64,000 bases of DNA. Source: a virus. Taxonomy: Duplodnaviria > Caudoviricetes. This document shows positions 1 through 60,181 of the stretch, piece by piece. Each line of letters starts with the position of its first letter. Within the stretch, counting starts at the first letter, position 1. The notes beneath the pieces were generated by a model that searched no databases, had not been told where the DNA came from, and worked only from the letters and a program-made list of their open reading frames with translations. The stretch is taken from IMG/VR virus record IMGVR_UViG_3300037424_001651, positions 1 through 64,000 of that record; one strand, 5' to 3'. The position numbers and the translations under genes were made by a program.

Positions 1-14
1 TTGTCAACTCGTTT

Positions 15-7455: not shown

Positions 7456-7746
7456 ATGCAGGGCTTCAGCAACCAAGAGCAAGATGTGATCATGCTCTTG
7501 ACCGACGCGAATCTTCAGCGTCGCTATGCCATCGCTTGCTGGTGTGTGGCTGAGTTCGCGCCCGAGGCGCGTGAGAAGCTCATCCATGAGATCATTGGAC
7601 TTACGGCGTTGCGCCTCGATTGCATCCCGGAGCCGTGGAAGCTCTTCGCGTCTACAGCGGAAGATACGGACACGGTTCTTCTCCCGATACAACTTTCACG
7701 CTTGCGTGCGTTGGTGGACAACTATGAGGCGAGGATCAAGGAGTGA
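7456..7746 (+). CDS. hypothetical protein
   Basis: ORF track. Confidence 0.55.
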   Translation: MQGFSNQEQDVIMLLTDANLQRRYAIACWCVAEFAPEAREKLIHEIIGLTALRLDCIPEPWKLFASTAEDTDTVLLPIQLSRLRALVDNYEARIKE

Positions 7747-7751
7747 GGAAC

Positions 7752-11726: not shown

Positions 11727-11802
11727 TGGGGCGTCGTCCAGTTGGTAGGACGCGACACTTTGGATGTCGATGTCGCAGGTTCGAGTCCTGCCGCCCCAGC
11801 CA
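11727..11802 (+). tRNA. tRNA-Gln(TTG) with CCA
   Basis: TGGGGCG/CGCCCCA, G73, CGACA-CTTTGGA-TGTCG, encoded CCA. Confidence 0.95.
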
Positions 11803-11810
11803 CAAAATCT

Positions 11811-11885
11811 GGACCCGTAGCACAACGGATAGTGTGGCGGCCTCCGAAGCCGTGGATACAGGTTCAAGTCCTGTCGGGTTCACCA
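11811..11885 (+). tRNA. tRNA-Arg(CCG) with CCA
   Basis: GCGGC-CTCCGAA-GCCGT arm, A20, TTCAAGT T-loop. Confidence 0.93.
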
Positions 11886-11886
11886 T

Positions 11887-11960
11887 GGGCCACTAGCTCA
11901 TCTGGATAGAGCACAAAATTCCTAATTTTGGGGTGGCCGGTTCGACTCCGGCGTGGCCTA
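11887..11960 (+). tRNA. tRNA-Arg(CCT)
   Basis: CAAAA-TTCCTAA-TTTTG arm, A20, TTCGACT T-loop. Confidence 0.93.
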
Positions 11961-11966
11961 CTGAAT

Positions 11967-12040
11967 GGACCCGTAGCTTAACTGGATCAAGCGCCGCACT
12001 ACGGATGCGGAGACTGGAGGTTCGAGTCCTCTCGGGTCTA
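11967..12040 (+). tRNA. tRNA-Arg(ACG)
   Basis: CCGCA-CTACGGA-TGCGG arm, A20. Confidence 0.94.
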
Positions 12041-12044
12041 CTGA

Positions 12045-12127
12045 GGGAGCGTTGGCGAATGGATTACGCCCCTGGATTTCTAATCCAGCGCCGAGAGGCA
12101 TTCCCGGTTCGAGTCCGGGCGCTCCTA
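12045..12127 (+). tRNA. tRNA-Arg(TCT) with long variable arm
   Basis: CTGGA-TTTCTAA-TCCAG arm; 14-nt variable region CGCCGAGAGGCATT. Confidence 0.85.
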
Positions 12128-12134
12128 CTACGAC

Positions 12135-24763: not shown

Positions 24764-25236
24764 GGCAGGGTAAGGGCCAAGTGGTGCGGCGCATCACGGT
24801 CGAGTGGGAAGACGGCGACACTGAATACATCGAGGGCAATGATGCTGTGCGGTGGTGGTCGATCATCGACACTATCGTGCGGATGCACATAGCGGCGAAC
24901 CCGAATACGCCGGAGCGCCGCAACTTCGGCGGTACATGGAAGAAGGTTGGCGATGGCGAAGACTAAGTCCACGAAGCGCCGCCACCGCCGCGTCCCGTTG
25001 CCACAATACCGGAACCGATCTCGTGCGCGCGGAGGTTTGCGTGATGGCGCATGTGAAAACAGGAGATCCTTTCATCGATGCCGTCTTCGACGGGATCGAA
25101 ACTGAGGACATGGCGGACGCGGACGGGGAATATCCGCTGGTCTTCCAGTGTCCACAGTGCGGATGCTTGCCGTACGTCTATCGGTCTGCGCACCCCGAGA
25201 ACGGCGTCGCGTGTCCACAGTGCGGAAGGAGCAGTG

Positions 25237-25800
25237 ATGCACTTCGACATCGCTAAGCACACGATCTTCAAGACGGTGACTGGGAGCCACGCCTACGGGT
25301 TGGCCACGCCGGAGTCCGACACGGACTACCGCGGCGTATGCGTGCCGCCGCAGGTGTTGGTGCTCTCGCCGTTCAAGAACTTCGAGCAGTACGAGGGTGA
25401 CCCCGCATCGGATGACGACACGGTCATCTACAGCATCCTGAAGTTCGTCAAGCTGGCGTCCGAGGCGAACCCATCGTTGCTGGAGCTTTTCTACATCGAC
25501 GAGCGCCACTGGGTCCAGACCACGCCGTGGTGGGATACGCTGTACGAGCACCGAGATTGGTTTCTCTCGACGCGGGTCGTGCACGCGTTCAGCGGCTATG
25601 CAGCCGCGCAGTTAAAGCGGATGCGTAACCACGCCCGCTGGATAGAGAACCCGCCCACAGAGCCGAAGCCCGAGGACTTCAATCTGACGCACGCAATGCT
25701 GCTTGGCAAAGACGAGATCGGGGCCTACGACTGGCTCAACGAACAAGAGGTCGGGCACTTCCGGTCCGTGACGGTCATCTTACCTGTGGTGAGAAGCTAG
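25237..25800 (+). CDS. RlaP-like Pol-beta nucleotidyltransferase, apparently truncated or frameshifted
   Basis: GSHAYGLATPESDTDYRG, KFVKLA..ANP, FSGYA..Q; helical C-terminal region missing. Confidence 0.8.
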   Translation: MHFDIAKHTIFKTVTGSHAYGLATPESDTDYRGVCVPPQVLVLSPFKNFEQYEGDPASDDDTVIYSILKFVKLASEANPSLLELFYIDERHWVQTTPWWDTLYEHRDWFLSTRVVHAFSGYAAAQLKRMRNHARWIENPPTEPKPEDFNLTHAMLLGKDEIGAYDWLNEQEVGHFRSVTVILPVVRS

Positions 25801-36488: not shown

Positions 36489-36856
36489 AGGTACACGTGA
36501 AGTGGCAGTTCGAGTGTGCGGCAAAGTTACCTGTTGATCCTGTGGGTCGCGGCCACAAGCAGGAAATCGAGTTGGCGGTTGTGCGCGGTCAAGATCCAAG
36601 GCTGGATGAAGTTGTGCAGCGTGGTCTGGGTAGGCGTGGGAAGCAGTGCTTGGCGCTGAACATGGCAGATGCTGTTTTTGGTAGGGGTCACCATGAGATT
36701 GTGTGCGGCTATTGCGGGGTGCCAGCTTTTCGCTTGTGGGTGTTTCCCTCGTCGCAAGCAGGTACATACACGGTTTTGTATCGGCAAGTCGAGAAGAGTT
36801 CTGACGTTGGCGTTGTAACTGTGGAGGTGGTAGATGCCGAGCCGGACGAAGACTGA
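36485..36856 (+). CDS. hypothetical protein
   Basis: GTGA overlap. Confidence 0.45.
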   Translation: MKVHVKWQFECAAKLPVDPVGRGHKQEIELAVVRGQDPRLDEVVQRGLGRRGKQCLALNMADAVFGRGHHEIVCGYCGVPAFRLWVFPSSQAGTYTVLYRQVEKSSDVGVVTVEVVDAEPDED

Positions 36857-39800
36857 TTGGCGGGCGAAGAAGTCGGAGGCGTGTCAGGATTGTCCGCTTT
36901 GCGACGAACCGATGGTACGCGGTGAGGGCAAACTGGATGGGCTTGGCCTTGTCATTATGGGTGAGGCTCCGGCACGGGAAGAGGTACGACAGAGCCGTCC
37001 CTTTGTTGGTGAGACAGGTCAGAAGGTGCTCGATCCGTTGTTGGAGCAGCACTTGCCGCAGAACGGGTGTCCCATCTCGCGTGAGGGTGTGTACATCACT
37101 AATGCATTACTTTGCCCATTGAATAAGAGTACCGTTACCCCCAAGCAGATCGAGGCTGCTATTGCATGCTGCAATCAGCGCCGTGTGGAGGAGCGCGAAC
37201 TTGTAGGGGCGAAGTTCATTATCGGCATGGGTGCGACTGCTGCACAGGCGCTCATTGGCGAAAAGACCGTCAAGACCTATCGCGGCGCAATCATGGATAG
37301 TCCATTCGGCCTGTGTTCAATCACGTATCACCCCACGTTCATCTTGCGTGGGAAGAAGACCGGTTCGCGCGTGCAGTCGGATGTGTACTATCAGGTGATT
37401 TTTCAAGATCTCGTCAACGCATATCGTATGGTTGATCCGACGGTGCCAGCCGACGAGCGCATGTTCCGTCCGGCGTACGACATCGCGCCGCCGATGGAAG
37501 ATGTGTTGGGCTTTCTCGATTGGATCCGCGCGAACAAGAAGTTGTGCTGTGTCGACATCGAGTGCGATAGCATTGACCCACTGGCCGCGAACTTGACGAT
37601 CATCGGGTTCGGGGCTGAGGTAGACGGTGTAGTCGTGTCGCATGCTGTTCCGGTCTGGGAAGGGTCCGGGTACACTACCGCTGAGCTTGAGGAGTTTTAT
37701 GCCACCTTTGCGGCGCTGGAAGCCGATCCGGCAGTTCCGAAGCTGTTTCACAATTTCACTTACGACGTCACGGTCCTGGAGCGCCACGGTATGCCAACAC
37801 GTGGCAAGGTCGAGGACACGCTCATTTTGCACTACTGTTTGTTCCCTGAACTCATGCACGATTTGCAGTCCGTGGCCACGTCTTATCTCAACATTGGTCC
37901 GTGGAAGGTGAACTTCCGTCGTCGGGAGAGTGCGCGCAGGAAGAAGTACGAGGCGCTGGCGCAGTGGCAGGAGAAAGCGGAGGAAGCGTCCGTCACGTTC
38001 ATGGAGTTTCGCAAGCATATCAAGGTCGTCGAGCCGCCCGGAAAGAAGCCGCTGGTGGGGAAAAAGTTGGCGGCGGCCTTTACGGGGCTGGGGCTGGATG
38101 AGATTGCGTTGGCCCGTTTCAAGAAGGCGCGTACAGCTCGTAAGCGTGCCGACAAGAAGCTGGTGCAACTTGAAGAGGAGATCAACAAGGAGTTCTACGA
38201 CGAGGAAGGCCGGGACATCAACAGCATCGAGGAGCTGCATTACAATGCCCTGGACGTTGCATGTACGCTCGGTTCGTGGCTGGCGATGCAAGAGGTTGAG
38301 CGAGAAGACCTCGACAAGATCACTGGTGAGACGACGCTGAAGGAACCGAAGCTCTACGAGACGGATGTGGCTGTTGCCGACATCGCGCGGCAGATGCAAC
38401 TACGGGGGTTGCCAGTCATCGGCGACGCACGTACGACCATGCAGACGAGCTTGCGCAAGCAGGTGGCGGAGCATGAGGTAGCTATTCAAGGCTTTTTGTG
38501 TGATGTCTTGGCCGCTGCTCAGCAGGCGAACCCTGAATGGTTCGATGGGCGCTTTGCTGATCCGAAGGCGTTGGAGGCCGAGATCAAGGCTGTGCGCGCG
38601 GCTGAAGAGGCTGCTTCGCAGCAACGCCGTGCAGATAAGGGTGGGAGCACTGTAGTGAAGGCTGTGGATTCGCGTGTGGAGGGCAATGCTACTGGGCCGC
38701 TTCCGATACTTAGCTTCGAGGCCGCGCAGTGGGATGAGCTGTCGATGCGGGATCGTAGTTGTGTACAGCTAGCTGCCATTTGTGCTGCCGGGGTCGTAGA
38801 CCCGAAGAAGGCCTTCAAGATCATGAGTCCGGAGCATAAGTCGTTCTTGCTTGATGCGTATGAGGTGCCTGTAGACGAGCTGACAGCCAAGACCGGCCAA
38901 CGTAAGATGGACAAGGACAATCTCGTCAAGTATAGGGGCGCGTACGACGTAGTACGATCCATGCTAGATTACAGTACGGCGCACAAGCTCTTGCGCACGT
39001 TCGTGGAAGGCAAGAAGATCATTATCGGTGAAGACGGGCGCATTCACCCGTCATGGAACTCCAAAGGCAGCACGAATCCCGAGGAGTACGGCACGGTTAC
39101 TGGCCGTTGGGCCAGTACCCCGAACGTCCAGAACTGGCCCTACGAGATGCGCGCCATGATTGGCTTTCGTGACGATGAAGACTGGACGCTGGTCGGTGCA
39201 GACTTCAGCCAATTGGAGTTTCGCATCCTTGCGTGGTTCGCTGGACAGACGGATCTGGTCATCGCCTTTAACGAAGGTCCGATCCTAACGCTGGACGGGG
39301 CTAACCCCGAGCATAACAAGCTACTGAAGGCTCGGAACGAAGAGAAGAAGAATCTCAAGGAGTGTCCCGAGGGCCTTGACGTGGACGGCTTGAAGCTGGG
39401 CGAGTTCAAGAACCTCATCCCAGATTCGCATCGTGATCTCTGGATGCAGCGCATCTTGCGCGTCGAGAAGAACGCTAAGGGCGAGATCTTTGTCGAGCGT
39501 GACATTCATTCTGCTACTGCCGTGAGCATCTTCGGAAACGAGTATATCGACGCGCCCCTCAAAAAGTACAAGCTGTTGCGCAACCTCACCAAGCGTGCGA
39601 CCTATGGTGGCATGTACGGTGGCAATGCAGATACGTTGTACAGCGCATTGCATCGGGACTTCCCAGGCACAAGCAAAACGCAGTGTGAGTTGTTCTTGGA
39701 AAAGTTCGACCGGATCTGGCCGGATATTGTCTCGTGGCGCAAGGATTCACATGACCGGGCAACGAAGGATGGAGAGCTGCGCACGCCGCTACTCGGGCGC

Positions 39801-40115
39801 TGCCGTCTCTTCCCGCTGCACCGACCGGAAGCTACGGTCGCCTTCAATTGGCCCATTCAAGCCACGGCCGGGGACATTATGAACACGAGCTTGCGCAGGC
39901 TCTATAACTACGTTCAGTCCCGGGACGACTTACGCGGCCGGGCCTACCCGATCATTCAAGTACACGACGCTATCTACTGGGAAGTCCGTCAGGAGATCGC
40001 CGAGGAGTTCCGGGCCGTCGTCGAGGAGCAGATGTCTTGTTACCTGGAGCACGAGACGGTGTGGATGAACTTCCCGGTCGAGGCCAAGATCGGCAAGATC
40101 TGGAGCGAGACATGA
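36834..40115 (+). CDS. polA: family A DNA polymerase with N-terminal family-4 UDG and 3'-5' exonuclease
   Basis: CxxC..GEAP..FVG..N..C..YHP; DIECD, FHNFTYD, YNALD; DFSQLE, KRATYGGMYG, QATAGDI, VHD. Confidence 0.95.
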   Translation: MPSRTKTDWRAKKSEACQDCPLCDEPMVRGEGKLDGLGLVIMGEAPAREEVRQSRPFVGETGQKVLDPLLEQHLPQNGCPISREGVYITNALLCPLNKSTVTPKQIEAAIACCNQRRVEERELVGAKFIIGMGATAAQALIGEKTVKTYRGAIMDSPFGLCSITYHPTFILRGKKTGSRVQSDVYYQVIFQDLVNAYRMVDPTVPADERMFRPAYDIAPPMEDVLGFLDWIRANKKLCCVDIECDSIDPLAANLTIIGFGAEVDGVVVSHAVPVWEGSGYTTAELEEFYATFAALEADPAVPKLFHNFTYDVTVLERHGMPTRGKVEDTLILHYCLFPELMHDLQSVATSYLNIGPWKVNFRRRESARRKKYEALAQWQEKAEEASVTFMEFRKHIKVVEPPGKKPLVGKKLAAAFTGLGLDEIALARFKKARTARKRADKKLVQLEEEINKEFYDEEGRDINSIEELHYNALDVACTLGSWLAMQEVEREDLDKITGETTLKEPKLYETDVAVADIARQMQLRGLPVIGDARTTMQTSLRKQVAEHEVAIQGFLCDVLAAAQQANPEWFDGRFADPKALEAEIKAVRAAEEAASQQRRADKGGSTVVKAVDSRVEGNATGPLPILSFEAAQWDELSMRDRSCVQLAAICAAGVVDPKKAFKIMSPEHKSFLLDAYEVPVDELTAKTGQRKMDKDNLVKYRGAYDVVRSMLDYSTAHKLLRTFVEGKKIIIGEDGRIHPSWNSKGSTNPEEYGTVTGRWASTPNVQNWPYEMRAMIGFRDDEDWTLVGADFSQLEFRILAWFAGQTDLVIAFNEGPILTLDGANPEHNKLLKARNEEKKNLKECPEGLDVDGLKLGEFKNLIPDSHRDLWMQRILRVEKNAKGEIFVERDIHSATAVSIFGNEYIDAPLKKYKLLRNLTKRATYGGMYGGNADTLYSALHRDFPGTSKTQCELFLEKFDRIWPDIVSWRKDSHDRATKDGELRTPLLGRCRLFPLHRPEATVAFNWPIQATAGDIMNTSLRRLYNYVQSRDDLRGRAYPIIQVHDAIYWEVRQEIAEEFRAVVEEQMSCYLEHETVWMNFPVEAKIGKIWSET

Positions 40116-47508: not shown

Positions 47509-48285
47509 ATGTACAACGTGAACTTCTCAAATAGTCTTGGCGCAGTGGAGCCACTCGAACAAGGGCTGTGGGATAGCGTTCCTGGCGACGTTTATCAAGA
47601 CGGCAAGTTTATCGCCGAGACAAGCGACGAGAACTTCGAGTACATCGAGAAGATGTCTCCGCCCTTGAGCAAGGAAGCTGCCGAGGCCATGGTTGCGGAG
47701 CTGACGGCCACCTTGAATGCGCGTCGCGCGGGGCTGGCGGCGCGTGGCATCGACGTGACTGAGGCGAATGTGACGTACGCTTGTGACGATGCGGTGTGCG
47801 GCGTCAAGTGGTCGTACGTGGCCCCGGTTCGTGAGTGGATGGGTCGTCAGCAATTCACCACGCAAAGCGAGGCTGAAGCATATCTGAATACGACGCTTCA
47901 GATGCTGCAAGCCAATGGCTGGGAAGTCCTGAACTCGCGCGTGACCGATCTCGATACTCCCGGGTACTGGTGCGTCGTGCACACTGTGGACATGACGCCG
48001 CTCTACCTTCAGATGGCAGAGCCAGGCGAGGGTGAAACGCTTGCTCCGCCGATCATTACAGACCTGCCCGAGACAATCGTGATCCCAGCCGCTACGATGA
48101 GCCGTGGCAAGAAGATCGGCTTGGGCCTCGGTATCGCCGGTGCTGTGTTGCTTCTGGGTGGCATTGTGACGGCGGTTGTGGTGAAGAAGCGCAACGACGC
48201 TGACGACGCGCCGGTGCATGGCTACGGTCGATACGGGCGTGCGTCTATGCACGGCCACTACAGCAAGCCTCGCAGCCGTTACTAG
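47509..48285 (+). CDS. protein with C-terminal TM anchor
   Basis: SD AAGGAGG; GLGLGIAGAVLLLGGIVTAVVV. Confidence 0.7.
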   Translation: MYNVNFSNSLGAVEPLEQGLWDSVPGDVYQDGKFIAETSDENFEYIEKMSPPLSKEAAEAMVAELTATLNARRAGLAARGIDVTEANVTYACDDAVCGVKWSYVAPVREWMGRQQFTTQSEAEAYLNTTLQMLQANGWEVLNSRVTDLDTPGYWCVVHTVDMTPLYLQMAEPGEGETLAPPIITDLPETIVIPAATMSRGKKIGLGLGIAGAVLLLGGIVTAVVVKKRNDADDAPVHGYGRYGRASMHGHYSKPRSRY

Positions 48286-48304
48286 GCGCGAAGGAGATTT
48301 ACGG

Positions 48305-48577
48305 ATGAACCCACTGGTAATCGTGTTCCGGCTCGTGACGGGACTCACAGAACTTATCGTGCACGAACTCAGGGCGAATCAGGAAGAGGCTGCGGCAGCC
48401 AACGTCGAAGTTGCCATGGGCTTCGGCCTCAAGGTCTTCGAGCGCCTCACCAATGGTGAGCCGCTTGATGAGCTGCTGAACAAGCGCGCCCGGGATCTCA
48501 TGACCGAGGAGGACGAGTCCGAGGTCGCGGCCGACGAGGCTGTGAAACGCGCCAAGAACATGTTCGGGAGGAAGTAG
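48305..48577 (+). CDS. hypothetical protein
   Basis: SD AAGGAG. Confidence 0.65.
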   Translation: MNPLVIVFRLVTGLTELIVHELRANQEEAAAANVEVAMGFGLKVFERLTNGEPLDELLNKRARDLMTEEDESEVAADEAVKRAKNMFGRK

Positions 48578-49375: not shown

Positions 49376-49756
49376 GTGAGCTTCGGACGTAAATGGAAGA
49401 ACTGGGGCGGTTCCAGTGAGACTAAGCCGCGTGGGATGGGCGGCTTCGCCGACATTGGCAGCCGCATCGTGAGCGCAGGCAAGCTCTCCAAGGCACTCAA
49501 GGACGCGGGCCTCTGGCCGCGGACCTTCACAGCGAACGACCTCAAGAAGGGTACCCCTGCCGCAAAGGACGTAGGCCACGAGATCTTCGGTAGTAGGGCG
49601 ATGATCTTCATCCATGCACAAGACATGGAGCATCGTCAGGCTATCGAGCGGTTCCTTCGCCGGGAAGACTACAAGTACAACCGGCGTTACTGGCCCGGCG
49701 CACCGGTCGTTGAGGCGCAGGTGTCGTATTTCAAGGGATGGCACTGGGACGAGTAG
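49376..49756 (+). CDS. leader-tagged hypothetical protein
   Basis: Starts MSFGRKWKNWGG. Confidence 0.7.
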   Translation: MSFGRKWKNWGGSSETKPRGMGGFADIGSRIVSAGKLSKALKDAGLWPRTFTANDLKKGTPAAKDVGHEIFGSRAMIFIHAQDMEHRQAIERFLRREDYKYNRRYWPGAPVVEAQVSYFKGWHWDE

Positions 49757-49767
49757 GAGACAATCTG

Positions 49768-50235
49768 ATGTTCAACCTCACCAAAGCAGACAAGACGGTC
49801 ATCGCCGCTTTCCTCGACCAGCGCCCGGCCTCGTCGAAGAAGCTCATAACGGACGGACAACGTCTTGATGGGCTGTGGATGGGCGGCATGGGAATCGCCG
49901 AGTGGCGTGGTCGCCGAATCCTGTTCACGGATCTGGGAAGCAAGGCGGCGCAGATTGTGCAGCACGCAATCGAGAAGAAGGCTCCGCGCAACTGGCTCGG
50001 CGGCTTTGGGCAGGCGCGCGGGCCGGAGTTGGACCCAGAGCAGGAGCAGATGCTCCACGAGATCGTCCTCATGGCGCGCAACGACGGTCGCTACTATCCC
50101 AACCAGCCTGCGATCTCTGTCGAGCAGGCTATAAAGGAATATATCAAGATCAAAACTGGGGGGCTGCGTGAGGATGCGCAGATCATCCGCCGTGCTGCCG
50201 TACGCGAAGTGCAGCACGTATGGAGGCAGCGATGA
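49768..50235 (+). CDS. two-domain hypothetical protein (LGGFG linker)
   Basis: SD AGGAG. Confidence 0.7.
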   Translation: MFNLTKADKTVIAAFLDQRPASSKKLITDGQRLDGLWMGGMGIAEWRGRRILFTDLGSKAAQIVQHAIEKKAPRNWLGGFGQARGPELDPEQEQMLHEIVLMARNDGRYYPNQPAISVEQAIKEYIKIKTGGLREDAQIIRRAAVREVQHVWRQR

Positions 50236-51017
50236 AACGACGTAGTTATGGCAGCAGCGCTGCCGATCTCGAACTAGCACACGAGGCAGTGAAGAAGGCG
50301 CGCAACTTTGTGTGGGAAGGCCCGAGCGACGAGTCGGACCCGGACAAGTGGGCCTTCACAGTCTCGCGGCATCGCGATTCGGGCCTGCTCGACGAGTCCA
50401 ACTTCGCGACGATCAGTAAGGACATGGAAGCGCGCTTCCCCGATGACGTCGAGGTGGTGCATTCCAGCCACTGGGCTGTGGGCTGGATCGACGAGCTTGC
50501 CGTGCGCGTCTTCGACGAGCAGGGCGGCATCACCGACGCTTTCCATGCCATTGTGGACTGGAAAGACAAGCTCGAAGACTATCCTATCGCCGACGAGGAC
50601 GATTACAGCGAACGCGAACAGAATGCGCTCATCGAACATATCGCTTCACAGATCATGTTTTCAGGTTTTACCGTGGATGATCCCGAAGATTGGGCGTATC
50701 GCGTGGCGCAGTGGTTGTCAGAGAACGGCTACGACAACGAGCTTGAGAACATCGATGATCGCGGCGCATACCCAAGCGAGGAAGCCGTTCAGGAAGCACT
50801 GCGTGTGCTTACACAAGCGGTTGGGGCGCTGGGTGAGATGGTAATGTCTGAAACCGCGGACGATGGACTTCGATACTGGTCGGTATATGCCCAAAGGTGG
50901 GTTGAGGTATCACCGGGTGGTTGGATACCTGTTGAGGAGTTGGCAGCGATGTCACCGGCCGACCGGGCACAAGCTATCGATTGGATAGAAAGGACCAGAC
51001 AATGGCAAAAAAGATGA
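50232..51017 (+). CDS. acidic phage protein (HW..GW / YP..DE motifs) plus short C-terminal domain
   Basis: RDS.LL.ESNF...HWAVGWI...LEDYPIADEDDYSERE. Confidence 0.7.
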   Translation: MKRRSYGSSAADLELAHEAVKKARNFVWEGPSDESDPDKWAFTVSRHRDSGLLDESNFATISKDMEARFPDDVEVVHSSHWAVGWIDELAVRVFDEQGGITDAFHAIVDWKDKLEDYPIADEDDYSEREQNALIEHIASQIMFSGFTVDDPEDWAYRVAQWLSENGYDNELENIDDRGAYPSEEAVQEALRVLTQAVGALGEMVMSETADDGLRYWSVYAQRWVEVSPGGWIPVEELAAMSPADRAQAIDWIERTRQWQKR

Positions 51018-51343
51018 TCATCAGGGCGCGGAGCTTCGAGAAGTGGATGCAGGCGAACTTCACGCGGGGCGAGCTTCAGGATCTCGCGCGCTACGGCGCG
51101 AACACAGGCTGGCAGGGCTTGACCTATTACAACGACACGGTCGCGCTCTACGACAAGTTCAACGTTGAGATCTGGACCGCGCTCTACGAAGATGCCGAAT
51201 CCTTCGGCGCGAAGAACGCCATCGCATTCATCGCTGACTTTGGTGGTGCAGACAGCGTCTCCGACGACGACACGTTCAAAAACCTGCTCGTATGGTACAT
51301 GGCCGAGCGCACAGCACACGAACTGCTTGGAGATGATTACTAA
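51002..51343 (+). CDS. conserved acidic phage protein
   Basis: G..G..GL.YYNDT..LYD....EI...N.LVW...E. Confidence 0.7.
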   Translation: MAKKMIIRARSFEKWMQANFTRGELQDLARYGANTGWQGLTYYNDTVALYDKFNVEIWTALYEDAESFGAKNAIAFIADFGGADSVSDDDTFKNLLVWYMAERTAHELLGDDY

Positions 51344-52107
51344 TGGGTTTCTTCTCGTGGGACTGCAACGTCTGCGGCCATCCGATGCTTTCACCGGATG
51401 CGACGAACCGGACCAACCGGTGGATGGCGGACGTCGTAGTCATCGAGCCGAACGGTTCCATCTTGATGGGTGAATACGACGGCTACGGCCGCGTGAACGA
51501 CCGCGACGTCGATGGGGAACCCTGCTGTTACCACCACGCTTGCTGGGAAGTTGCAGGCAAGCCCACGAAGTACATCCCAAGTGAGTCCGCGCACGATCAG
51601 GGGTGGTTCTTCGACGACCCCAAGCACGACATGCCCGATCCCCGCAAGTCCCGCGGCATGCGCGGCTTCGGGGCCGTGGCACGAAAGATCAAGAAGCAGC
51701 TTCCTGATGAGGCCGAGTTCTACGCATACCTCTACAAGAAGAATAAGGGCATCTTCTATCGCGGGGAAGGTGCGGATGGTCATGGTGTTGGGATGGGTGC
51801 GCTGGGTGCAGGCTTGTACGTGACGTGGGAAAAGGCCATGGCGAAGGCTTTCGCTGACCGGCAGAATAGTCACGTGTTCAAGTACAAGCTCAAGCCCGGC
51901 TTGAAACTGCTCGACGCGCAGAGTCGTACGATGGCATGGCTCAAAGCGGAAATGGGTTTCCATCCGTGGGAGTACAGCGACGACCCCATGTACGCTTTGA
52001 TGCTCACAGACAAGGTCCGCAGTTTGGGCTACGACGGCGTGATCAGCGACAAGTTGGCAGATGGGCTTGTGATCTTCAACGCGAAAAACGCAAAGAAGGT
52101 GAAGTGA
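51343..52107 (+). CDS. Cys/His domain fused via MRGFG to an ADP-ribosyltransferase-like (ART-PolyVal-like) domain
   Basis: FYRG...LG.GLYVT...A..FA...YDGVI...LVIF. Confidence 0.6.
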   Translation: MGFFSWDCNVCGHPMLSPDATNRTNRWMADVVVIEPNGSILMGEYDGYGRVNDRDVDGEPCCYHHACWEVAGKPTKYIPSESAHDQGWFFDDPKHDMPDPRKSRGMRGFGAVARKIKKQLPDEAEFYAYLYKKNKGIFYRGEGADGHGVGMGALGAGLYVTWEKAMAKAFADRQNSHVFKYKLKPGLKLLDAQSRTMAWLKAEMGFHPWEYSDDPMYALMLTDKVRSLGYDGVISDKLADGLVIFNAKNAKKVK

Positions 52108-52970
52108 TGGGCTTCGGACGCAAATGGAAGAACTGGGGCGACGCGGCTTCCGACAGGCGCGCGGAAGTCGGACGCATCATCTTCGAGCAGTTCGGCGGCA
52201 GGCAGGCCATGGCCATGATCGGCGGTCAAGCCACGTTGCTGAACTTGCCGCACTACGGCGAAGGCGGCCTCGGCATCAAATGGCCGAACAAGCAGCGCTC
52301 CAAGGGAAACTACGTCGAGATCCTCTTGAGGCCCGACGATACGTACGACATGACCTTCTACAACCTGACGATCCGGGCCAAGAAGCCGGTCAAGAAGTTC
52401 GAGGGTGTGTACGCGGAAGACCTTCGACGGCTGTTCGAGGATCAGACGGGTTGGTACCTGTCGCTGGGTGGTGCAGGATTCGGTGCGCACAAGAAGAAGG
52501 GTGAGGCTAAAGCCCCCACGATATACCTGACCAAGAGCGGCTCGCACTGGCAAGTCATCGCGCACGGGCAGGCTATAGCCCAACACCGCAGTGAAGAGCA
52601 AGCGGCGCGTGCCTACTTGTGGTACGGCGGCGTCCCGCTTGAGCCTTGGGTCTACTTGGGTGGCATCACAGGGGAAGATCGTTTCATCCGCCGCTCTGAA
52701 CTCTACGCAGCAGGACTCCAAGGCTTGGGAGCACTTGCTCTAGGTCCGCATCTGACCGAGGCGCAGATTGCAGCAGTGCGAGAAGAAGTCATACGCGAAG
52801 GTGTGCCTGTGCGTTTCCTTCACGACGGACAGAACTTGAACATCGTGACTGGGGAGTTGCTCCCGCGTGGCACTAACGTCCTGCACCAAATGGTGTACTG
52901 GGGCTTCCCGCGGTCGACCTCGAAGAAGATCGCCAAGTGGCTCGGTGTCAAGGCCGTGTTCTCGGAGTGA
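52107..52970 (+). CDS. leader-tagged three-domain polyprotein
   Basis: MGFGRKWKNWG; I.EQFGG...M.G...DDTY.M.F...GVYAEDL...FE.QTG.YLSL; linkers GAGFG and LQGLG. Confidence 0.72.
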   Translation: MGFGRKWKNWGDAASDRRAEVGRIIFEQFGGRQAMAMIGGQATLLNLPHYGEGGLGIKWPNKQRSKGNYVEILLRPDDTYDMTFYNLTIRAKKPVKKFEGVYAEDLRRLFEDQTGWYLSLGGAGFGAHKKKGEAKAPTIYLTKSGSHWQVIAHGQAIAQHRSEEQAARAYLWYGGVPLEPWVYLGGITGEDRFIRRSELYAAGLQGLGALALGPHLTEAQIAAVREEVIREGVPVRFLHDGQNLNIVTGELLPRGTNVLHQMVYWGFPRSTSKKIAKWLGVKAVFSE

Positions 52971-52975
52971 AGCAC

Positions 52976-53365
52976 ATGAGCTTTGGACGCAAATGGAAGA
53001 ACTGGGGCGGCCTGCGTGGGACGTCATGTAGCGAAGCGGATGGGTGGCTCCCCGAAGCAGAGTGTAGGAAGTACCACCCCAAGTATTTCCGCTTCGAGTG
53101 GAACGCGGATCACACGTACTGTCGCCCGCACAGAGGCGATGCGTGGTGGGACGATGCCTCCTACATCGCGCATCAAACAGGTGTAGATGCGATGGCGATG
53201 GAGGATTGGTGGTTCCGCGAGGAGGCACGCCAGCACGAAGCCGCGCGACAAGAACAGCGCGAGACGCGTGAGGCGGGCTGGCGGCGTAGAGGCAGTGCGC
53301 TGCCGGGGCGCAAGCCACAAAAGTATCGCCGCAGGCGGATCGATGTGGATGACATCCCCTTTTAA
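52976..53365 (+). CDS. leader-tagged hypothetical protein
   Basis: Starts MSFGRKWKNWGG. Confidence 0.65.
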   Translation: MSFGRKWKNWGGLRGTSCSEADGWLPEAECRKYHPKYFRFEWNADHTYCRPHRGDAWWDDASYIAHQTGVDAMAMEDWWFREEARQHEAARQEQRETREAGWRRRGSALPGRKPQKYRRRRIDVDDIPF

Positions 53366-53374
53366 GGCGCGAAG

Positions 53375-53662
53375 ATGAGCTTTGGGCACAAATGGAAGAA
53401 CTGGGGCCACCTGCCCGAGAAAAAGATCCTTTGGGAGGAAGCTGCCTTCCGCATCACAACGGACGGTTCGGGTGCCTACAACATGGAGAAACTACGCGGC
53501 CGCCCCACTGACAATCTTCCTGTAGGGAGCATCGAGTATTTTCCTCCTGAGACGCCATTGGAAGTTGTCATCAAGGAAGCGCGGTTGCTTTGCCAAGCCC
53601 AGATTCAACGGCAACGATTGACACGCGTCTATCGCCGTGGTGGACGCGGACGCGGAAGGTGA
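53375..53662 (+). CDS. leader-tagged hypothetical protein
   Basis: Starts MSFGHKWKNWG. Confidence 0.65.
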   Translation: MSFGHKWKNWGHLPEKKILWEEAAFRITTDGSGAYNMEKLRGRPTDNLPVGSIEYFPPETPLEVVIKEARLLCQAQIQRQRLTRVYRRGGRGRGR

Positions 53663-53665
53663 ATC

Positions 53666-54547
53666 ATGAAATTTGGACGTAAGTGGGCGAACTGGGGCGG
53701 CTTTGGGGCGACGCCAACTGCACGCGAGCTGGAAGTGCTCAAGGCTATCATCCACAGCGCGTATCACGACGGCGCGGATCCGGTGGACAACCCGGTCTGG
53801 TCGTGGTCAGCCCTGAAGAGCCGCAGTGACAACGCCGTCTTCGGTTCCTTGGTGAAGAAGGGCTGGGCTGGTTCTTCGTACTATGAGGAGAACGAGACAA
53901 TCGTCTGGATTACGCAGGAAGGCATGAACGTGCTACGCGCCGCAGGCGGGATGGCCGGTTTCGGTGGTCATGGCGCAGACATCATCGTGGTGGACCGCGC
54001 CGGGAATGTGCTGGAGACAGCGAAGGAAGGGATCCCGCGAGCTGCCATCGCCCAAGGCCGCTTTGACTCGCGGCGCTTCATCGAGGCGAACCTGCCGTGG
54101 TCGAGCGTCGCACGGATGTCTGACACGGAAGTCCTCGGCGTGGACGTCAGCTTCACAGAGCGGGATAGGCACGTCATCCGGGTCGTCGTGGCAACGCCGG
54201 AGCAGCGCGGCCACTGGAAAGAAGGCAGCGCGGACGATTGGGAATTGTACAGCAAGCCCGGTAGGAATGCTGCTGCCAAGGGCCTGAATGCAGCGCTGAA
54301 GAAAGCTATGAAGATGATCGACACCACACTGGTGATCGGGGACCTGGACTTGCAGCCAGAGGACATCGCAAAGATCGCGAAGGTGATCTCCAACGCGTAC
54401 GCGAAGTACATGGCTCCGGCGCTGATCAAGTATCGAGCGCTGGGTGCCGGAGATAGCGAGGGCTACTACCACGCGAATCAAGCGCTGATCGACCACGTGA
54501 AGCGCGCAAACGGCTGGTGGGACATCGACTTCAGAGACTACCTGTGA
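53666..54547 (+). CDS. leader-tagged multi-domain protein
   Basis: MKFGRKWANWGGFG; internal MAGFG. Confidence 0.7.
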   Translation: MKFGRKWANWGGFGATPTARELEVLKAIIHSAYHDGADPVDNPVWSWSALKSRSDNAVFGSLVKKGWAGSSYYEENETIVWITQEGMNVLRAAGGMAGFGGHGADIIVVDRAGNVLETAKEGIPRAAIAQGRFDSRRFIEANLPWSSVARMSDTEVLGVDVSFTERDRHVIRVVVATPEQRGHWKEGSADDWELYSKPGRNAAAKGLNAALKKAMKMIDTTLVIGDLDLQPEDIAKIAKVISNAYAKYMAPALIKYRALGAGDSEGYYHANQALIDHVKRANGWWDIDFRDYL

Positions 54548-54596: not shown

Positions 54597-55079
54597 ATGA
54601 CGACACGTTGCACAGTTGAGATCTGGGCTGCTGATATGCGCGTACCAACGGTGAGTCTATATCATCACACCGATGGTGATCCAGGCTTCATGGGTCCGAA
54701 GCTCGAAAGGTTCATGAAGTACATCATGAAAGTGTTACCATACCGACACGACGAAGCGGCGACAGTTGCAGCGATGCTCGTGAAGCTCTCGTCCGATAAT
54801 TATGATGGGCCGGTTGAACCGAATACTGGACCTGTCGAAACCTGGATTCCGAAAAATAGCGAGGTGATGGGGGCACGGGCGCTGATTCCGTTCTTCCATC
54901 CGACGTGTGTGGTGCACTGGGACATCGCTTACTTGTGGCGTGTCAAACTCGGGAAGGTATACGCAAAGAATAGGGGCTACAAGATCGAGTGTTATGTACC
55001 CAGCTTTGATTATGAAACAGGTGAGGTTCTCGATCTGAGGAAGGTCAACTGGAAGGCTGAGGCAAAGAAGAGGCGTTGA
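54597..55079 (+). CDS. conserved phage protein
   Basis: MTTR.....LY.H.DG.P..MG..L pattern; SD AAGGAG. Confidence 0.7.
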   Translation: MTTRCTVEIWAADMRVPTVSLYHHTDGDPGFMGPKLERFMKYIMKVLPYRHDEAATVAAMLVKLSSDNYDGPVEPNTGPVETWIPKNSEVMGARALIPFFHPTCVVHWDIAYLWRVKLGKVYAKNRGYKIECYVPSFDYETGEVLDLRKVNWKAEAKKRR

Positions 55080-55678
55080 TGTACGCTGTTGGGCACATGG
55101 CTGGATTTGGTGCGACCGCTGAGAAGCGGCGTGTGGACGTCGTCGGTCTATACCCCGAGGAGAATAAGTACCTCGGGACGGTGTGGAAGGTGTTCTACAC
55201 GGGTGCAGTGTCTACTATGTACCCGAGCGAACGTACATTGCGGTTCGTGAACGAATACTTCGCGACGAAGTATCCACATGTTCCAGCGACGGCTGAAGCA
55301 CATTTCAAGCTTGATGGGACGATGGACTACATGGAGGTCTTCGCACCGTTCGCGGTTGGGCCTCGTCCGGCTCCGGTTTCGTTGCCTTATACAACGGTAT
55401 CGATCCCAGTTGAGATTCGTTATGGGAGCTATCTCATTCGTACAACTGGTTTTCGTACGAGCTATTTGTCGGAGCGTAGTATTGCGTTCCTTAACGCATG
55501 GGTTACTTCGCAACAGCATTGGTCGGAGAAGTACAAGTATGAATTCTGGAAGCCGAAGGATGTGGTAGTGCGGTTGGATGCTGTGACTGGACGTCCTGAC
55601 AAGATAACCGTAAACGTTGGCCTTGGATCACTCGCGGACGCGAGCAAGGCGAAGGAAACCTACCTCGCAATGTTGTGA
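55076..55678 (+). CDS. hypothetical protein with MAGFG leader and internal duplication
   Basis: Two similar halves (YPSERTLRFVN / YLSERSIAFLN). Confidence 0.6.
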   Translation: MMYAVGHMAGFGATAEKRRVDVVGLYPEENKYLGTVWKVFYTGAVSTMYPSERTLRFVNEYFATKYPHVPATAEAHFKLDGTMDYMEVFAPFAVGPRPAPVSLPYTTVSIPVEIRYGSYLIRTTGFRTSYLSERSIAFLNAWVTSQQHWSEKYKYEFWKPKDVVVRLDAVTGRPDKITVNVGLGSLADASKAKETYLAML

Positions 55679-57118: not shown

Positions 57119-58300
57119 CTAAAGGAGACAGCTTCTAGGAACATGCAGACCAACGTCCACATTACGTCCCTCCGGCTCCATCCAAGCCGGGAGTGCGCGC
57201 GCGAGGATATTTCTCGCCGCGTTCTCGTCTCTGTGCAGGACCAGCCCGCAATGCGGACACGAGTGTTTCCGCTCGCGCAGCGTCTTGGGCACCTTCTGGC
57301 CGCAGCCGCTGCAATCTTGGCTTGTTCCTGCGGGATTCACAGCCACAACCTGCGTACCGGCGCTCTCAGCCTTGTACTTCAAGATGTTCAAGAACTGGCC
57401 CCAGCCAGCGTCTCGAATCGCCCGGTTCAACCAGCGGGGACCGCCCATCGTGGTAATGGTCAAATCCTCCACGGCGATGAAGCCGTAGCGACGGATCAAT
57501 TCCAGAGCTTCTTTGTGATGAAAGTCGCGCCGCTTGTTCGCGACGTGCGCATGCAGCGCCTGCACGCGTCCCTTCGTCTTCGCCCGGCGTTTGCTTCCGG
57601 GTTTGGCCCGGGCGAGCGCTTTTTGCTTGCGGCGCAGCGTAGGCAAGGTGTCTTTGAGAAAGCGCGGGTTCGGGATCTTCGCGCCATCAGGATGCGTGGC
57701 GAAACGCTCCAGCCCCAGATCGATCCCGGTCTTCGGCTCGTGAGCGCGCTCTTCAGGCAAGATTTTCGGCGCGCCGACGTCACAGGAAAAGACGGCGTAC
57801 CACTTGCCTGCTTCGCGCTTGATACAGACGGTTTTGATCTCGCCTTGCAACGGCCGGTGCAACTTGATACGCACCTTACCGACGTACTGGACGCGCAGCC
57901 TCGGGTGTGCCGGGTCGAGCAGCACAATTCCATCCCCATAACTCGGAAGCGTGAACGAGTCGAAGCGATCTCGGGGCTTGAAGCGTGGGTAGCCCGGCTT
58001 CTCGCCCGGTTTGGCCTTTTTGACGCGCCGGAAGAACGCCTCGAAGGACTTGTTGAGCTGACGCAAGGTAGCTTGCGCGCTGGAGAAGTTGAGCCGGGCG
58101 AAGTAAGCGTTCGAGCCGCGTTCGGCTTTGTACCACGCAGATTGTTCAGGGTAATTGACGCTACGTCCTTCGGCTTCCCAGCCTGCTTTGCGCTTAGCGA
58201 GGGCGACGTTGTAGAGGCGGCGGTGGGTTTCGAGCATGCTCGAAAGCTCCCCGATCTGTACCTTGTTGGGGTACAGACGGTACTTGAAGCTACGCCTCAT
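57119..58300 (-). CDS. tnpB: TnpB RNA-guided nuclease
   Basis: YRLYPN HTH, GIDLGL, AVEDL, CxxC...CxxC, RDENAA; RuvC D-E-D intact. Confidence 0.96.
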   Translation of the reverse strand: MRRSFKYRLYPNKVQIGELSSMLETHRRLYNVALAKRKAGWEAEGRSVNYPEQSAWYKAERGSNAYFARLNFSSAQATLRQLNKSFEAFFRRVKKAKPGEKPGYPRFKPRDRFDSFTLPSYGDGIVLLDPAHPRLRVQYVGKVRIKLHRPLQGEIKTVCIKREAGKWYAVFSCDVGAPKILPEERAHEPKTGIDLGLERFATHPDGAKIPNPRFLKDTLPTLRRKQKALARAKPGSKRRAKTKGRVQALHAHVANKRRDFHHKEALELIRRYGFIAVEDLTITTMGGPRWLNRAIRDAGWGQFLNILKYKAESAGTQVVAVNPAGTSQDCSGCGQKVPKTLRERKHSCPHCGLVLHRDENAARNILARALPAWMEPEGRNVDVGLHVPRSCLL

Positions 58301-58303
58301 ACC

Positions 58304-58702
58304 TTATTTACCCTTCTGGGCCTCGATATATTCACGAACTGTCTTCTCGTTGACGTGTCCGACGGTCCCGGCGTAGTAGCTTCGACTCCAGAGGGTCGGC
58401 AAGCGCGAGCGCAACGCCGGGAATTTTTGACGCAAGATGCGCGAGGTCGATCCTTTGAGGCGGTTGATGATCTCGGCCACGCACCAGCGAGGATCGGCTT
58501 CGACAAAGAGATGTACATGATCGGGCATGATCTCCAGCGTGTGTACAGTCATGTCCAGCGTATCCGCCTTTTCACGCAGCAAGACTTCGAGTCGCGCAGC
58601 CACATCGTCGTCGAGGACGGGCCGACGATACTTGGGGCACCACACGATGTGATACTTCAAGTTGAAGACGGCTCCGGCGTTTTTGCTGCAGCGAGCTTCC
58701 AT
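58304..58702 (-). CDS. tnpA: Y1 HUH transposase
   Basis: YHIVWCPKYRR, DHVH, WSRSYY, YIEAQ. Confidence 0.96.
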   Translation of the reverse strand: MEARCSKNAGAVFNLKYHIVWCPKYRRPVLDDDVAARLEVLLREKADTLDMTVHTLEIMPDHVHLFVEADPRWCVAEIINRLKGSTSRILRQKFPALRSRLPTLWSRSYYAGTVGHVNEKTVREYIEAQKGK

Positions 58703-58709
58703 GCCGCAC

Positions 58710-58737
58710 AGTATACACAAGACAAATACTTAATCAA
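58710..58737 (-). promoter_or_regulatory. tnpA promoter
   Basis: TTGATT-16 nt-TATACT with upstream TG. Confidence 0.5.
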
Positions 58738-59237: not shown

Positions 59238-59534
59238 GTGCCGAAGATCTATGGAAAGCTGGCGGGTGTTTTACAGGCGCGTGATGCGGCGGGCAAGTTG
59301 ATCAAGCCCGTGCGGCGCATCGGTATGACGAGTATCGAGTCAACCCTCATGACGCACTATGGTGGTTTGACGTTGACGTTGGACGCGCGCGGCTACTTCT
59401 GTTTGGTAGCGCAATCGCGCAGCGGAGAAACGCTAGCTGTGCAGGAAGGTAATGTACACGCGTTGCTCGACGCCGCTGGATTGTTGGAACCAGAAGTATT
59501 GGAAGCGCTCTTGAGCGAGGAAGAGCTGCACTGA
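59238..59534 (+). CDS. hypothetical protein
   Basis: SD AGGAG + GTG. Confidence 0.5.
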   Translation: MPKIYGKLAGVLQARDAAGKLIKPVRRIGMTSIESTLMTHYGGLTLTLDARGYFCLVAQSRSGETLAVQEGNVHALLDAAGLLEPEVLEALLSEEELH

Positions 59535-60181
59535 TGAGTTGGGGCCGCTGGAAAGCGTGGGGTAGCTTGGGCGAACGCAGGTTCGATTCGCGCCAAGCGG
59601 CGCGGAAACCGGTACGCCCATTGCGTGTTCCAAAACCATACGAATTGCCTTCCTTCGTACCGCCTGTCCGTCCTGGTGCTGGGCGGCATGAGCATTGGAC
59701 TGAAAAGCAGGTTTACCCGGATTTGCTGCGGTTTGCCGCCGAGGTGCTGAAGTTTCGCGATCCGCGACTCAAGAGCCACTTTGCGGATACAGGTAATGTC
59801 GACGCTATCGTGTACGACGCTGGGCGGCGTAGCAAGCCCTGTGCACGGTTCGAGGTCAAGAGCGCGCAGCCTTACGTCAAGGATGTACACGCACGTACAG
59901 GACGTCGTGTGGGCCGTTATCAAGTCAGCCCGCGTCAGCATGCGCTACACAAGACAGGTGTTTGCGATTTGTTCTACGTGCTTGTGCCAGTTCGGGACGA
60001 GAAGATCGAGCATGTGGGCATTTGTAATGTACCGATGATCGAGAAGGTGTTGGAGAAACCGCTTACCACGGCTATCGGTATCCATCGTATTGGTGGGTTC
60101 GAGTGCCCTGGCGTGGATGACTGGGTCAAGGCCCAGCGGGCACAAAAACGGCGTAGAATAAGTGATACGCGTGAATTTTGA
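59534..60181 (+). CDS. putative PD-(D/E)XK endonuclease with degenerate leader (MSWGRWKAWGSLG)
   Basis: E...VDAI...FEVKS. Confidence 0.6.
   Translation: MSWGRWKAWGSLGERRFDSRQAARKPVRPLRVPKPYELPSFVPPVRPGAGRHEHWTEKQVYPDLLRFAAEVLKFRDPRLKSHFADTGNVDAIVYDAGRRSKPCARFEVKSAQPYVKDVHARTGRRVGRYQVSPRQHALHKTGVCDLFYVLVPVRDEKIEHVGICNVPMIEKVLEKPLTTAIGIHRIGGFECPGVDDWVKAQRAQKRRRISDTREF

Follow-up and report, generated by a model that had tools for sequence, protein, structure and literature searches.

The window analysed here covers the first 64 kb of one contig of 75,547 bp, which was treated as a virus record (IMG/VR record IMGVR_UViG_3300037424_001651). In this window, five plus-strand open reading frames (ORFs), which we name by their first nucleotide (49376, 52107, 52976, 53375 and 53666), open with the same peptide, M-x-FG[RH]KW[KA]NWG. 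Five unrelated proteins with one common 11-residue leader had been proposed in the original prediction, and this description holds: the ORFs have nothing else in common, as an all-against-all BLASTP comparison aligned the five proteins over residues 1-11 to 1-17 only, with the exception of one weak alignment that reaches to about residue 30. That the leader represents a portable peptide tag carried by shuffled protein modules is, in our view, very probable. The larger statement that combines the tag, the shuffled modules and packaging into the capsid draws on an analogy with other phages, and we put it forward tentatively.

The leader coincides with the starts of the genes. Four of them begin with ATG and 49376 begins with GTG, and purine-rich, Shine-Dalgarno-like stretches are located 5-10 nt upstream of the starts. 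An independent gene caller picked identical starts for 52107, 52976 and 53375, and the start of 53666 is matched by the protein P0001, which is 100% identical over its full length. The four leader genes between 52107 and 54547 are consecutive and separated by gaps of 3-9 nt. A local profile built from 14 leaders scores the five window copies with 25-37 bits (E <= 6e-7); in a six-frame translation of the whole 75.5-kb contig, this profile found nothing beyond these five above noise.

The leader is also present outside the window. P0002 was the first homologue to emerge; it matches the C-terminal two-thirds of the 53666 protein with 65% identity and starts with MSFGRRWKNWGGFG. The profile scan suggested in the original prediction, performed exhaustively on 1.84 billion representative proteins, added six proteins that carry the leader at residue 1 (P0007, P0008, P0009, P0011, P0012 and P0013; E 2.5e-6 to 5.9e-4), and two further leader genes are encoded on related contigs (L011, 1186-1536; L012, 1584-2288). 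Thus, nine genes of related uncultured phages from at least four datasets besides the window's own have the leader at residue 1, giving a total of 14 proteins, and the consensus M-[SGKR]-F-G-[RH]-[KR]-W-[KA]-N-W-G corresponds to the first 11 codons of the genes. The lineage is represented in the datasets JGI 3300042731 and 3300060480, ENA ERZ23498361, SRR10072863 and SRR17165164. The cargo behind the leader is 45-80% identical between datasets, and the leader is retained. Searches beyond these phages gave a different picture: exact degenerate DNA patterns for the leader had no match in IMG/VR and the JGI metagenome contigs; among one genome for each of 185,579 prokaryote species (GTDB) the DNA pattern matched once, internally and by chance; tblastn searches of 50,697 GenBank phages with the leader and with the 53666 protein found no match; and, with residues 1-40 of the 52976 protein as the query, a word-index search yielded no sequence other than this protein. 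With module Z, the C-terminal part of the 53666 protein, only weak matches without leaders were obtained in IMG/VR (31% over 80 residues) and nothing in the metagenome contigs. Since no leader was found outside of related uncultured phages in these searches, the leader is specific to a rare lineage rather than copied from a host protein. A homologue from an unrelated genome that carries the leader as part of its fold, which would speak against a tag, was not found.

The comparison of the copies indicates that selection on the leader acts at the level of the peptide. The 18-mer AAATGGAAGAACTGGGGC is present in four exact copies and in one copy with three mismatches, all on the plus strand, as compared to 0.06 copies expected; the earlier report of conserved DNA in four copies is thus correct. 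The likeness of the DNA starts at the start codon and stops after about 36 nt, and apart from the purine-rich ribosome-binding stretches there is no conservation in the DNA upstream of the starts. For codons 3-11 of the five window copies, the proportions of synonymous (pS) and nonsynonymous (pN) differences are 0.46 and 0.053, respectively (ratio 0.11), and for nine copies (the five of the window and four from related contigs) pN is 0.029 and pS 0.46-0.47 (ratio 0.06); these values are derived from small numbers, but their direction is clear. Because the codons of both the leader and the junction described below vary at synonymous sites, the peptide is the conserved entity, in agreement with the selection on the peptide that had been proposed from partly synonymous DNA differences.

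The tagged proteins have 95-349 amino acids and are built from one to three interchangeable modules. Module P, the cargo next to the leader in the 52107 protein, provides the clearest case: it has 22 homologues in metagenomes with 45-66% identity and further homologues in three cultured phages (Morganella phage Mecenats66, Ralstonia phage RSP15 and Tenacibaculum phage pT24), and all of them lack the leader, which is the support that the original prediction had asked for. These homologues are mostly stand-alone proteins of about 90-130 residues (a few have up to 195), and most of the stand-alone proteins stop exactly where the 52107 protein reads GGAGFG. As module P stands alone without the leader in these proteins, the view that the leader is a portable add-on to its cargo is well supported by the sequence comparisons. 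Module P directly follows the leader in the window and in L011 (NWG|DAASDRR), it follows another module in P0007 and P0008 (GFG|DAASDRR), and it is itself followed by three different C-terminal modules. Similar rearrangements are seen for the other modules: (i) Module Y, the cargo of the 49376 protein, is located behind other N-terminal modules in P0009 (117-209), in P0013 (125-223) and in the product of the first gene of L011. (ii) In the window, module Z comes after module X, in P0003 it stands behind an N-terminus that has no leader, and in P0002 it is placed directly after the leader and GGFG, without the intervening module of roughly 85 residues. (iii) The partner of module H is module I in P0011 and module J in P0012, and module J also follows a further module in L012. 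Sequence searches of the leader proteins in Pfam, NCBIfam and the PDB gave no match, and the sole PHROG match, for the 52107 protein, is a family of no assigned function (phrog_9437). All Foldseek matches to the 52107 model were uncharacterised phage proteins, and the ESM Atlas yielded no usable match. Judged by a winged-helix-like module, a mimic of the tail of the single-stranded-DNA-binding protein (SSB) and an Arg/Gly-rich tail, the cargo looks directed towards nucleic acids.

Most of the module joins have the form Gly-aromatic-Gly (GGFG, FGFG, AGFG, RGFG, QGFG, DGFG and, once, AGYG), and the leader itself is often followed by GFG or GLG. In these proteins, G[FYW]G was counted 20 times versus 4.8 +/- 2.2 times in composition-preserving shuffles (maximum of 14 in 2000 shuffles). 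In about half of the junctions the sequence is GFG|A, i. e. an aromatic residue and then small residues. The codons of the GFG junction differ at synonymous sites, and the junction is therefore a feature of the peptide and not a DNA site. Neither the junction nor the construction from multiple modules was part of the original prediction; both are new here. The structure predictions fit with this arrangement. In the AlphaFold2 model of the 52107 protein, which was computed on the alignment of the module P homologues, the leader (residues 1-12) has a low predicted local distance difference test score (pLDDT) and no secondary structure, module P (residues 13-121) forms a confident fold (pLDDT about 90), the linker with GFG (residues 122-135) has a pLDDT below 50, and a second confident fold starts at residue 139. 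A second AlphaFold2 model was poor (mean pLDDT 51, leader 25); with this low confidence, it gives module X a helix-helix-helix-strand-strand pattern. According to these models, the leader is outside of the folded cargo, and GFG is part of a disordered linker. The leader genes and the leaderless genes with the junction are listed in the table.

Leader genes of the window, a possible diverged copy and leaderless genes with the Gly-aromatic-Gly junction
Feature	Coordinates	Strand	Length	Leader	Layout and remarks
Leader gene 1	49376..49756	+	126 aa	49376-49411	GTG start; short spacer with GMGGFA after the leader, then module Y (residues 28-126)
Leader gene 2	52107..52970	+	287 aa	52107-52139	Module P (phrog_9437 family, residues 12-121); then a disordered linker that contains GGAGFG (GFG = 52476-52484) and a C-terminal module that starts near residue 136
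Leader gene 3	52976..53365	+	129 aa	52976-53011	
Leader gene 4	53375..53662	+	95 aa	53375-53410 (MSFGHKWKNWGH)	C-terminal tail Arg/Gly-rich
Leader gene 5	53666..54547	+	293 aa	53666-53698	GFG 53699-53707; module X (residues about 19-92); internal GMAGFG junction (GFG = 53957-53965); module Z (98-293)
Possible diverged leader gene	59534..60181	+	215 aa		MSWGRWKAWGSLG
Leaderless two-module gene	51343..52107	+			Internal GMRGFG (GFG = 51664-51672); 1-nt overlap of its stop codon with the start of leader gene 2
Leaderless gene	55076..55678	+			MAGFG at residues 8-12 (GFG = 55103-55111)
Leaderless gene	49738..50235	+			Internal ...RNWLGGFGQ... (about 49990-50013), like leader end plus junction

It is tempting to speculate that one common partner recognises the tag on all leader proteins. 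The likeliest partner would be the assembling prohead, i. e. its core, its scaffold or its protease; we rank the prohead first because the capsid targeting sequence (CTS) of phage T4 is the only well-studied phage case of diverse small proteins that share just a short N-terminal peptide. The tagged "mini-polyproteins" would be loaded into the capsid, they would be trimmed at exposed aromatic-Gly junctions, and the trimmed modules would be delivered along with the DNA. A cargo directed towards nucleic acids would suit an action on or beside the incoming DNA. The exposed motif found between the modules often also comes right after the leader, as would be expected for such a "load, then trim" scheme. 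In its most specific form, the analogy leads to a two-part "tag-and-junction" grammar in one lineage of large uncultured phages, with the leader as the signal for capsid loading and ejection and Gly-aromatic-Gly as the cleavage sites of an undescribed phage maturation-protease specificity, which we regard as possible but doubtful. According to this grammar, small effector modules would be arranged in a chain and exchanged through recombination at their joins; after packing, they would be cut from one another and injected with the DNA, as a miniature plug-and-play form of polyvalent proteins.

Several findings weigh against capsid loading. Among the ORFs searched in the 75.5-kb contig, which probably covers just a part of the phage genome, there are no genes for capsid, portal, terminase, scaffold or protease proteins, and the leader genes lie amid small accessory genes that adjoin the replication module, both here and on related contigs. 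There is no apparent sequence likeness to the T4 CTS. Moreover, Glu is absent from the core of the leader and from the residues just behind it, and with it any x-x-Glu cleavage motif, and some leaders continue without GFG (NWGDAAS, NWGHLPE and NWGGSSE). The leader and the junction are separable, and the junction does not need the tag, since GFG joins also occur in the leaderless 51343, 49738 and 55076 genes; the orthologue of 49738 on L012 has no GFG at that place. Cleavage at the leader or at GFG is a putative step, and GFG could be a plain hinge. The original prediction of a portable virion tag is borne out for the portable tag, which is peptide-selected and present on different modules, but its virion part gains nothing from the genes found on this contig or from a likeness to the T4 CTS.

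The leader can be compared to several known systems. The CTS of the T4 internal proteins was reportedly described by Mullaney and Black in 1996. As in T4, a short N-terminal peptide (about 10-20 residues in T4) is the sole common part of diverse small and often basic accessory proteins, and this peptide is separable from the cargo; indeed, the T4 internal proteins IPI-III are a diverse set that has only the CTS in common (PMC3012670). Prohead proteases recognise L/I-x-Glu in T4 and A/S/G-x-Glu in phiKZ and SPN3US (PMC5694885). In contrast to T4, the leader lacks L/I-x-Glu, and the cargo consists of multiple modules with GFG joins that are exchanged between relatives. Packaging and cleavage are established for the T4 CTS and would be putative steps for the leader described here. 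In the giant phages, SPN3US gp53 and gp54 have an identical N-terminus of 15 residues that contains protease motifs, and the ejection proteins of phiKZ and SPN3US carry several cleavage motifs per polypeptide that are used by the protease for trimming (PMC5694885). However, these propeptides belong to paralogues and have A/S/G-x-Glu, whereas the leader precedes unrelated cargo and Gly-aromatic-Gly is the candidate site. Polyvalent proteins and MuF-fused polymorphic toxins combine effector domains in varying ways, and the constant N-terminal part in front of these domains is believed to take them into the capsid (PMC5512222, PMC5576092). They resemble the tagged proteins in their variable multi-domain architectures and in the extensive mosaicism between relatives. 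Unlike the tagged proteins, they have folded MuF/gp7 head-morphogenesis or known enzyme domains, are often very large, often have their own peptidase, and have their genes next to those of the head; in the tagged proteins, which are of the small size given above and have no known domain, a peptide of 11 residues is all that is constant. In the Pfam, NCBIfam, PDB-sequence and PHROG searches, no MuF/SPP1 gp7 domain or other known effector or peptidase domain was found in the leader proteins. In Staphylococcus phage 80alpha, the host protease Prp cuts between F and A in an N-terminal motif that is common to the capsid and scaffold proteins and to the ribosomal protein L27 (PMC5744158). This motif of about 13 residues is likewise a conserved N-terminal peptide of proteins that are not homologous, and it is cut at an aromatic residue; but it imitates a ribosomal protein of the host, and the enzyme that cuts it is the host's own, whereas no host counterpart of the leader was found. 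Finally, the cargo-loading peptides of encapsulins and bacterial microcompartments are short terminal peptides that, together with a flexible linker, direct unrelated cargo into a protein shell. Here, the sequences are different and the contig has no shell gene. By sequence, cleavage motif and domain content, the leader does not belong to the T4 CTS, MuF or polyvalent families; it may have a function like that of the T4 CTS or of the constant part of MuF-fused toxins and polyvalent proteins. Neither the leader nor the Gly-aromatic-Gly module junction was found to be described in the databases searched or in literature searches that were aimed at these comparator systems and not at the leader. 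A short targeting leader on diverse phage accessory proteins is a known kind of element, and it is the module-and-junction grammar that is unusual.

Other explanations for a common leader have to be considered. The leader might be a tag for localisation within the infected cell, with its basic and aromatic residues anchoring the cargo at the membrane interface, at the DNA or nucleoid, or in a compartment or condensate made by the phage, and with GFG as flexible hinges. On a helix, F3, W7 and W10 would lie on one face, R5, K8 and N9 on the opposite face and K6 at the edge, and the composition is like that of Trp/Lys-rich interfacial or nucleic-acid-binding peptides in general. In addition, the cargo looks DNA-related, the region of the leader genes appears to be accessory or early rather than structural, and the leader cluster is flanked by membrane proteins, with hydrophobic segments in 46170, 47509, 48806 and 62148. 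However, the amphipathicity is only moderate (the helical hydrophobic moment of 0.56 was attained in 7.5% of shuffles), a helix is disfavoured by the Gly residues 4, 11 and 12 and is not seen for the leader in the AlphaFold2 models, and the strict conservation of nine residues including Asn9 exceeds what a generic affinity for membranes or DNA would need; on balance, localisation strikes us as rather unlikely. We regard as quite unlikely that the leader is recognised by a protease or chaperone, either as a degron for a common timed turnover or as the handle for a common folding or processing factor. There is a precedent for short N-terminal motifs that are common to non-homologous phage proteins and handled by a host protease (PMC5744158); the leader is exposed and unstructured in the model, and in the junction the aromatic residue is followed by small ones. 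Yet, none of the 185,579 prokaryote species has a host protein with the leader as its N-terminus, the leader does not resemble the Prp motif, and no protease was found nearby among the ORFs searched.

Two further explanations place the origin of the conservation in the nucleic acid. The leader may be a relic, now merely tolerated, that recombination or gene conversion distributed over neighbouring genes; it would then be a 5' cassette or a handle for recombination. The identical 18-mer in four copies, the clustering of the leader genes and the recombination of modules among related phages, with joins where the leader ends or at GFG, would all fit. The low pN/pS ratio at a pS of about 0.46 speaks instead for a long persistence under peptide constraint, the leader was retained on cargo that has diverged between the datasets, and GFG is not conserved as DNA, so that a mere relic seems very unlikely to us. 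A role as recombination handle, which had also been suggested in the original prediction, is compatible with the shuffling of modules, but it is unneeded, as the codons of leader and junction vary synonymously. A DNA signal of another kind, such as iterons or other repeats, was ruled out, given that the copies are located at gene starts, vary synonymously and have no conserved DNA upstream. We consider highly improbable that an element of the mRNA is conserved, i. e. a translation enhancer or the operator for a translational repressor, comparable to the RegA-type control of several T4 mRNAs. It is true that the DNA is conserved exactly at the translation starts of several genes in an operon-like array. 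But no conserved element precedes the start codon, the synonymous sites vary while the residues do not, and most of the identity stems from the Trp and Asn codons; moreover, RNA folding around the leader starts revealed no common structure and no unusual stability (z from -0.2 to +1.7), so that an RNA structure was discarded as well. Export signals were also rejected. The leader is followed by Gly-rich or polar residues and has neither a hydrophobic stretch nor a Cys, which excludes a Sec, Tat or lipoprotein signal; such signals have a hydrophobic region behind a basic one, and a twin-Arg motif (Tat) or a lipobox Cys (lipoproteins). Double-glycine leaders that are cleaved by C39 peptidases have 15-30 residues with the pattern LSxxELxxIxGG and an ATP-binding-cassette transporter with a C39 domain nearby. 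Only the GG is in common here, in most copies, and no transporter or peptidase is present among the contig ORFs searched.

The 52976 protein ends with ...IDVDDIPF (window 53342-53365), which resembles the acidic C-terminal tip of bacterial SSB and is the only such C-terminus in the contig. In bacteria, the SSB tip DDDIPF recruits many DNA-repair and replication proteins. From this likeness, the tip of the 52976 protein could be a decoy for, or a hijacker of, SSB-binding host proteins.

Some sequences resemble the leader to different degrees. The 59534 ORF had been regarded as a degenerate copy. Its start, MSWGRWKAWGS, can be aligned to the leader only with a one-residue deletion, it was not detected by the leader profile, and family searches of the protein gave no match. 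By an estimate from composition, chance would hardly ever produce the pattern M-S-aromatic-G-R...W-K-x-W-G at a start codon, with the restriction that the pattern was picked after seeing the sequence. Thus, a diverged copy is plausible by eye but lacks statistical support. The stretch MRFGLTQAERQAAWSGFG (genome 64349-64402; L007 1349-1402), within the ORF 64235-64705, resembles a stretched leader plus junction and precedes a module with two transmembrane segments; its leader-profile score is at the noise level. The leader profile also matched P0010, a metagenome "integrase repeat unit" protein (PF14882), at internal repeats that each end with W-x-[NG]-W-G-D-F-L-G-T-G, which is reminiscent of how the leader runs into the junction (KWKNWGGFG or KWKNWGD). 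This likeness could be a coincidence or reflect a distant origin of the leader; the PF14882 INT_rpt model had no match to the leader proteins at E <= 0.1. The "MFGRK" at the end of the ORF 48218-48577 was dismissed as a coincidence, as it overlaps a ribosome-binding site.

The contig carries a replication and nucleotide module of the phage type, which includes an SNF2 helicase, a RecD-like helicase, a DUF3987 protein, a PD-(D/E)XK nuclease, a family A DNA polymerase with an N-terminal domain of the uracil-DNA-glycosylase family, ThyX and an RNase T-like exonuclease, as well as six tRNA genes; many of the remaining genes are small, on the plus strand and without a family match. As there is no terminal repeat on the 75.5-kb contig and its start falls inside a TnpB-like ORF, the contig is probably a fragment of a larger phage genome. 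This TnpB-like ORF at the very start (3-761, minus strand) is truncated and probably explains the assembly break. An IS200/IS605-type pair, as read by eye from the translations, is located on the minus strand within the array of small accessory genes (57119-58720), with a TnpB-like ORF at 57119-58300 and a TnpA-like ORF at 58304-58720. The neighbourhood of the leader genes is conserved while the tagged genes differ, since a DUF7222 gene (50981-51343) lies just upstream of the 51343 and 52107 genes, and a DUF7222 gene also directly precedes the leader gene for P0007 on its contig.

Other features of the contig concern nucleic acids. The family A DNA polymerase (36834-40115, 1093 residues) has a 3'-5' exonuclease domain in addition to the N-terminal domain of the uracil-DNA-glycosylase superfamily; its nearest GenBank phage matches have less than 35% identity, and a search of IMG/VR with the polymerase found no relative. 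The tRNA genes form a cluster at 11727-12128 (tRNA-Gln and four tRNA-Arg with the anticodons CCG, CCT, ACG and TCT), and a tRNA-Met is located apart from it at 2126-2200. An RlaP family nucleotidyltransferase (Pfam PF10127) is encoded at 25078-25800, and a 642-residue ORF in L007 (3492-5420; genome 66492-68420) looks like a TROVE/Ro-type protein by eye; together, the two suggest a theme of RNA repair or RNA quality control in this phage. In the remainder of L007, reading by eye revealed ORFs for an apparent MT-A70-like methylase, an RNase H and a DUF1848-like protein. Finally, a 673-residue ORF without family match (7743-9764) has a run of 12 glycines that separates its two halves.

Short portable peptides that send unrelated proteins to one destination are rare in phages, and known cases such as the T4 CTS became tools for packing foreign proteins into capsids. 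The leader described here, which is carried by a rare lineage, is well defined, with 11 residues, clear selection on the peptide and 14 proteins from at least five datasets including the contig of the window. It is accompanied by a natural experiment, the swapping of modules, and by a second conserved motif at the joins. If the leader is indeed a signal for loading and ejection, the small tagged proteins would be candidates for injected counter-defence or take-over factors, and a new cleavage specificity would be revealed. If it is a tag for localisation or turnover instead, the leader would still provide a compact and transferable handle.

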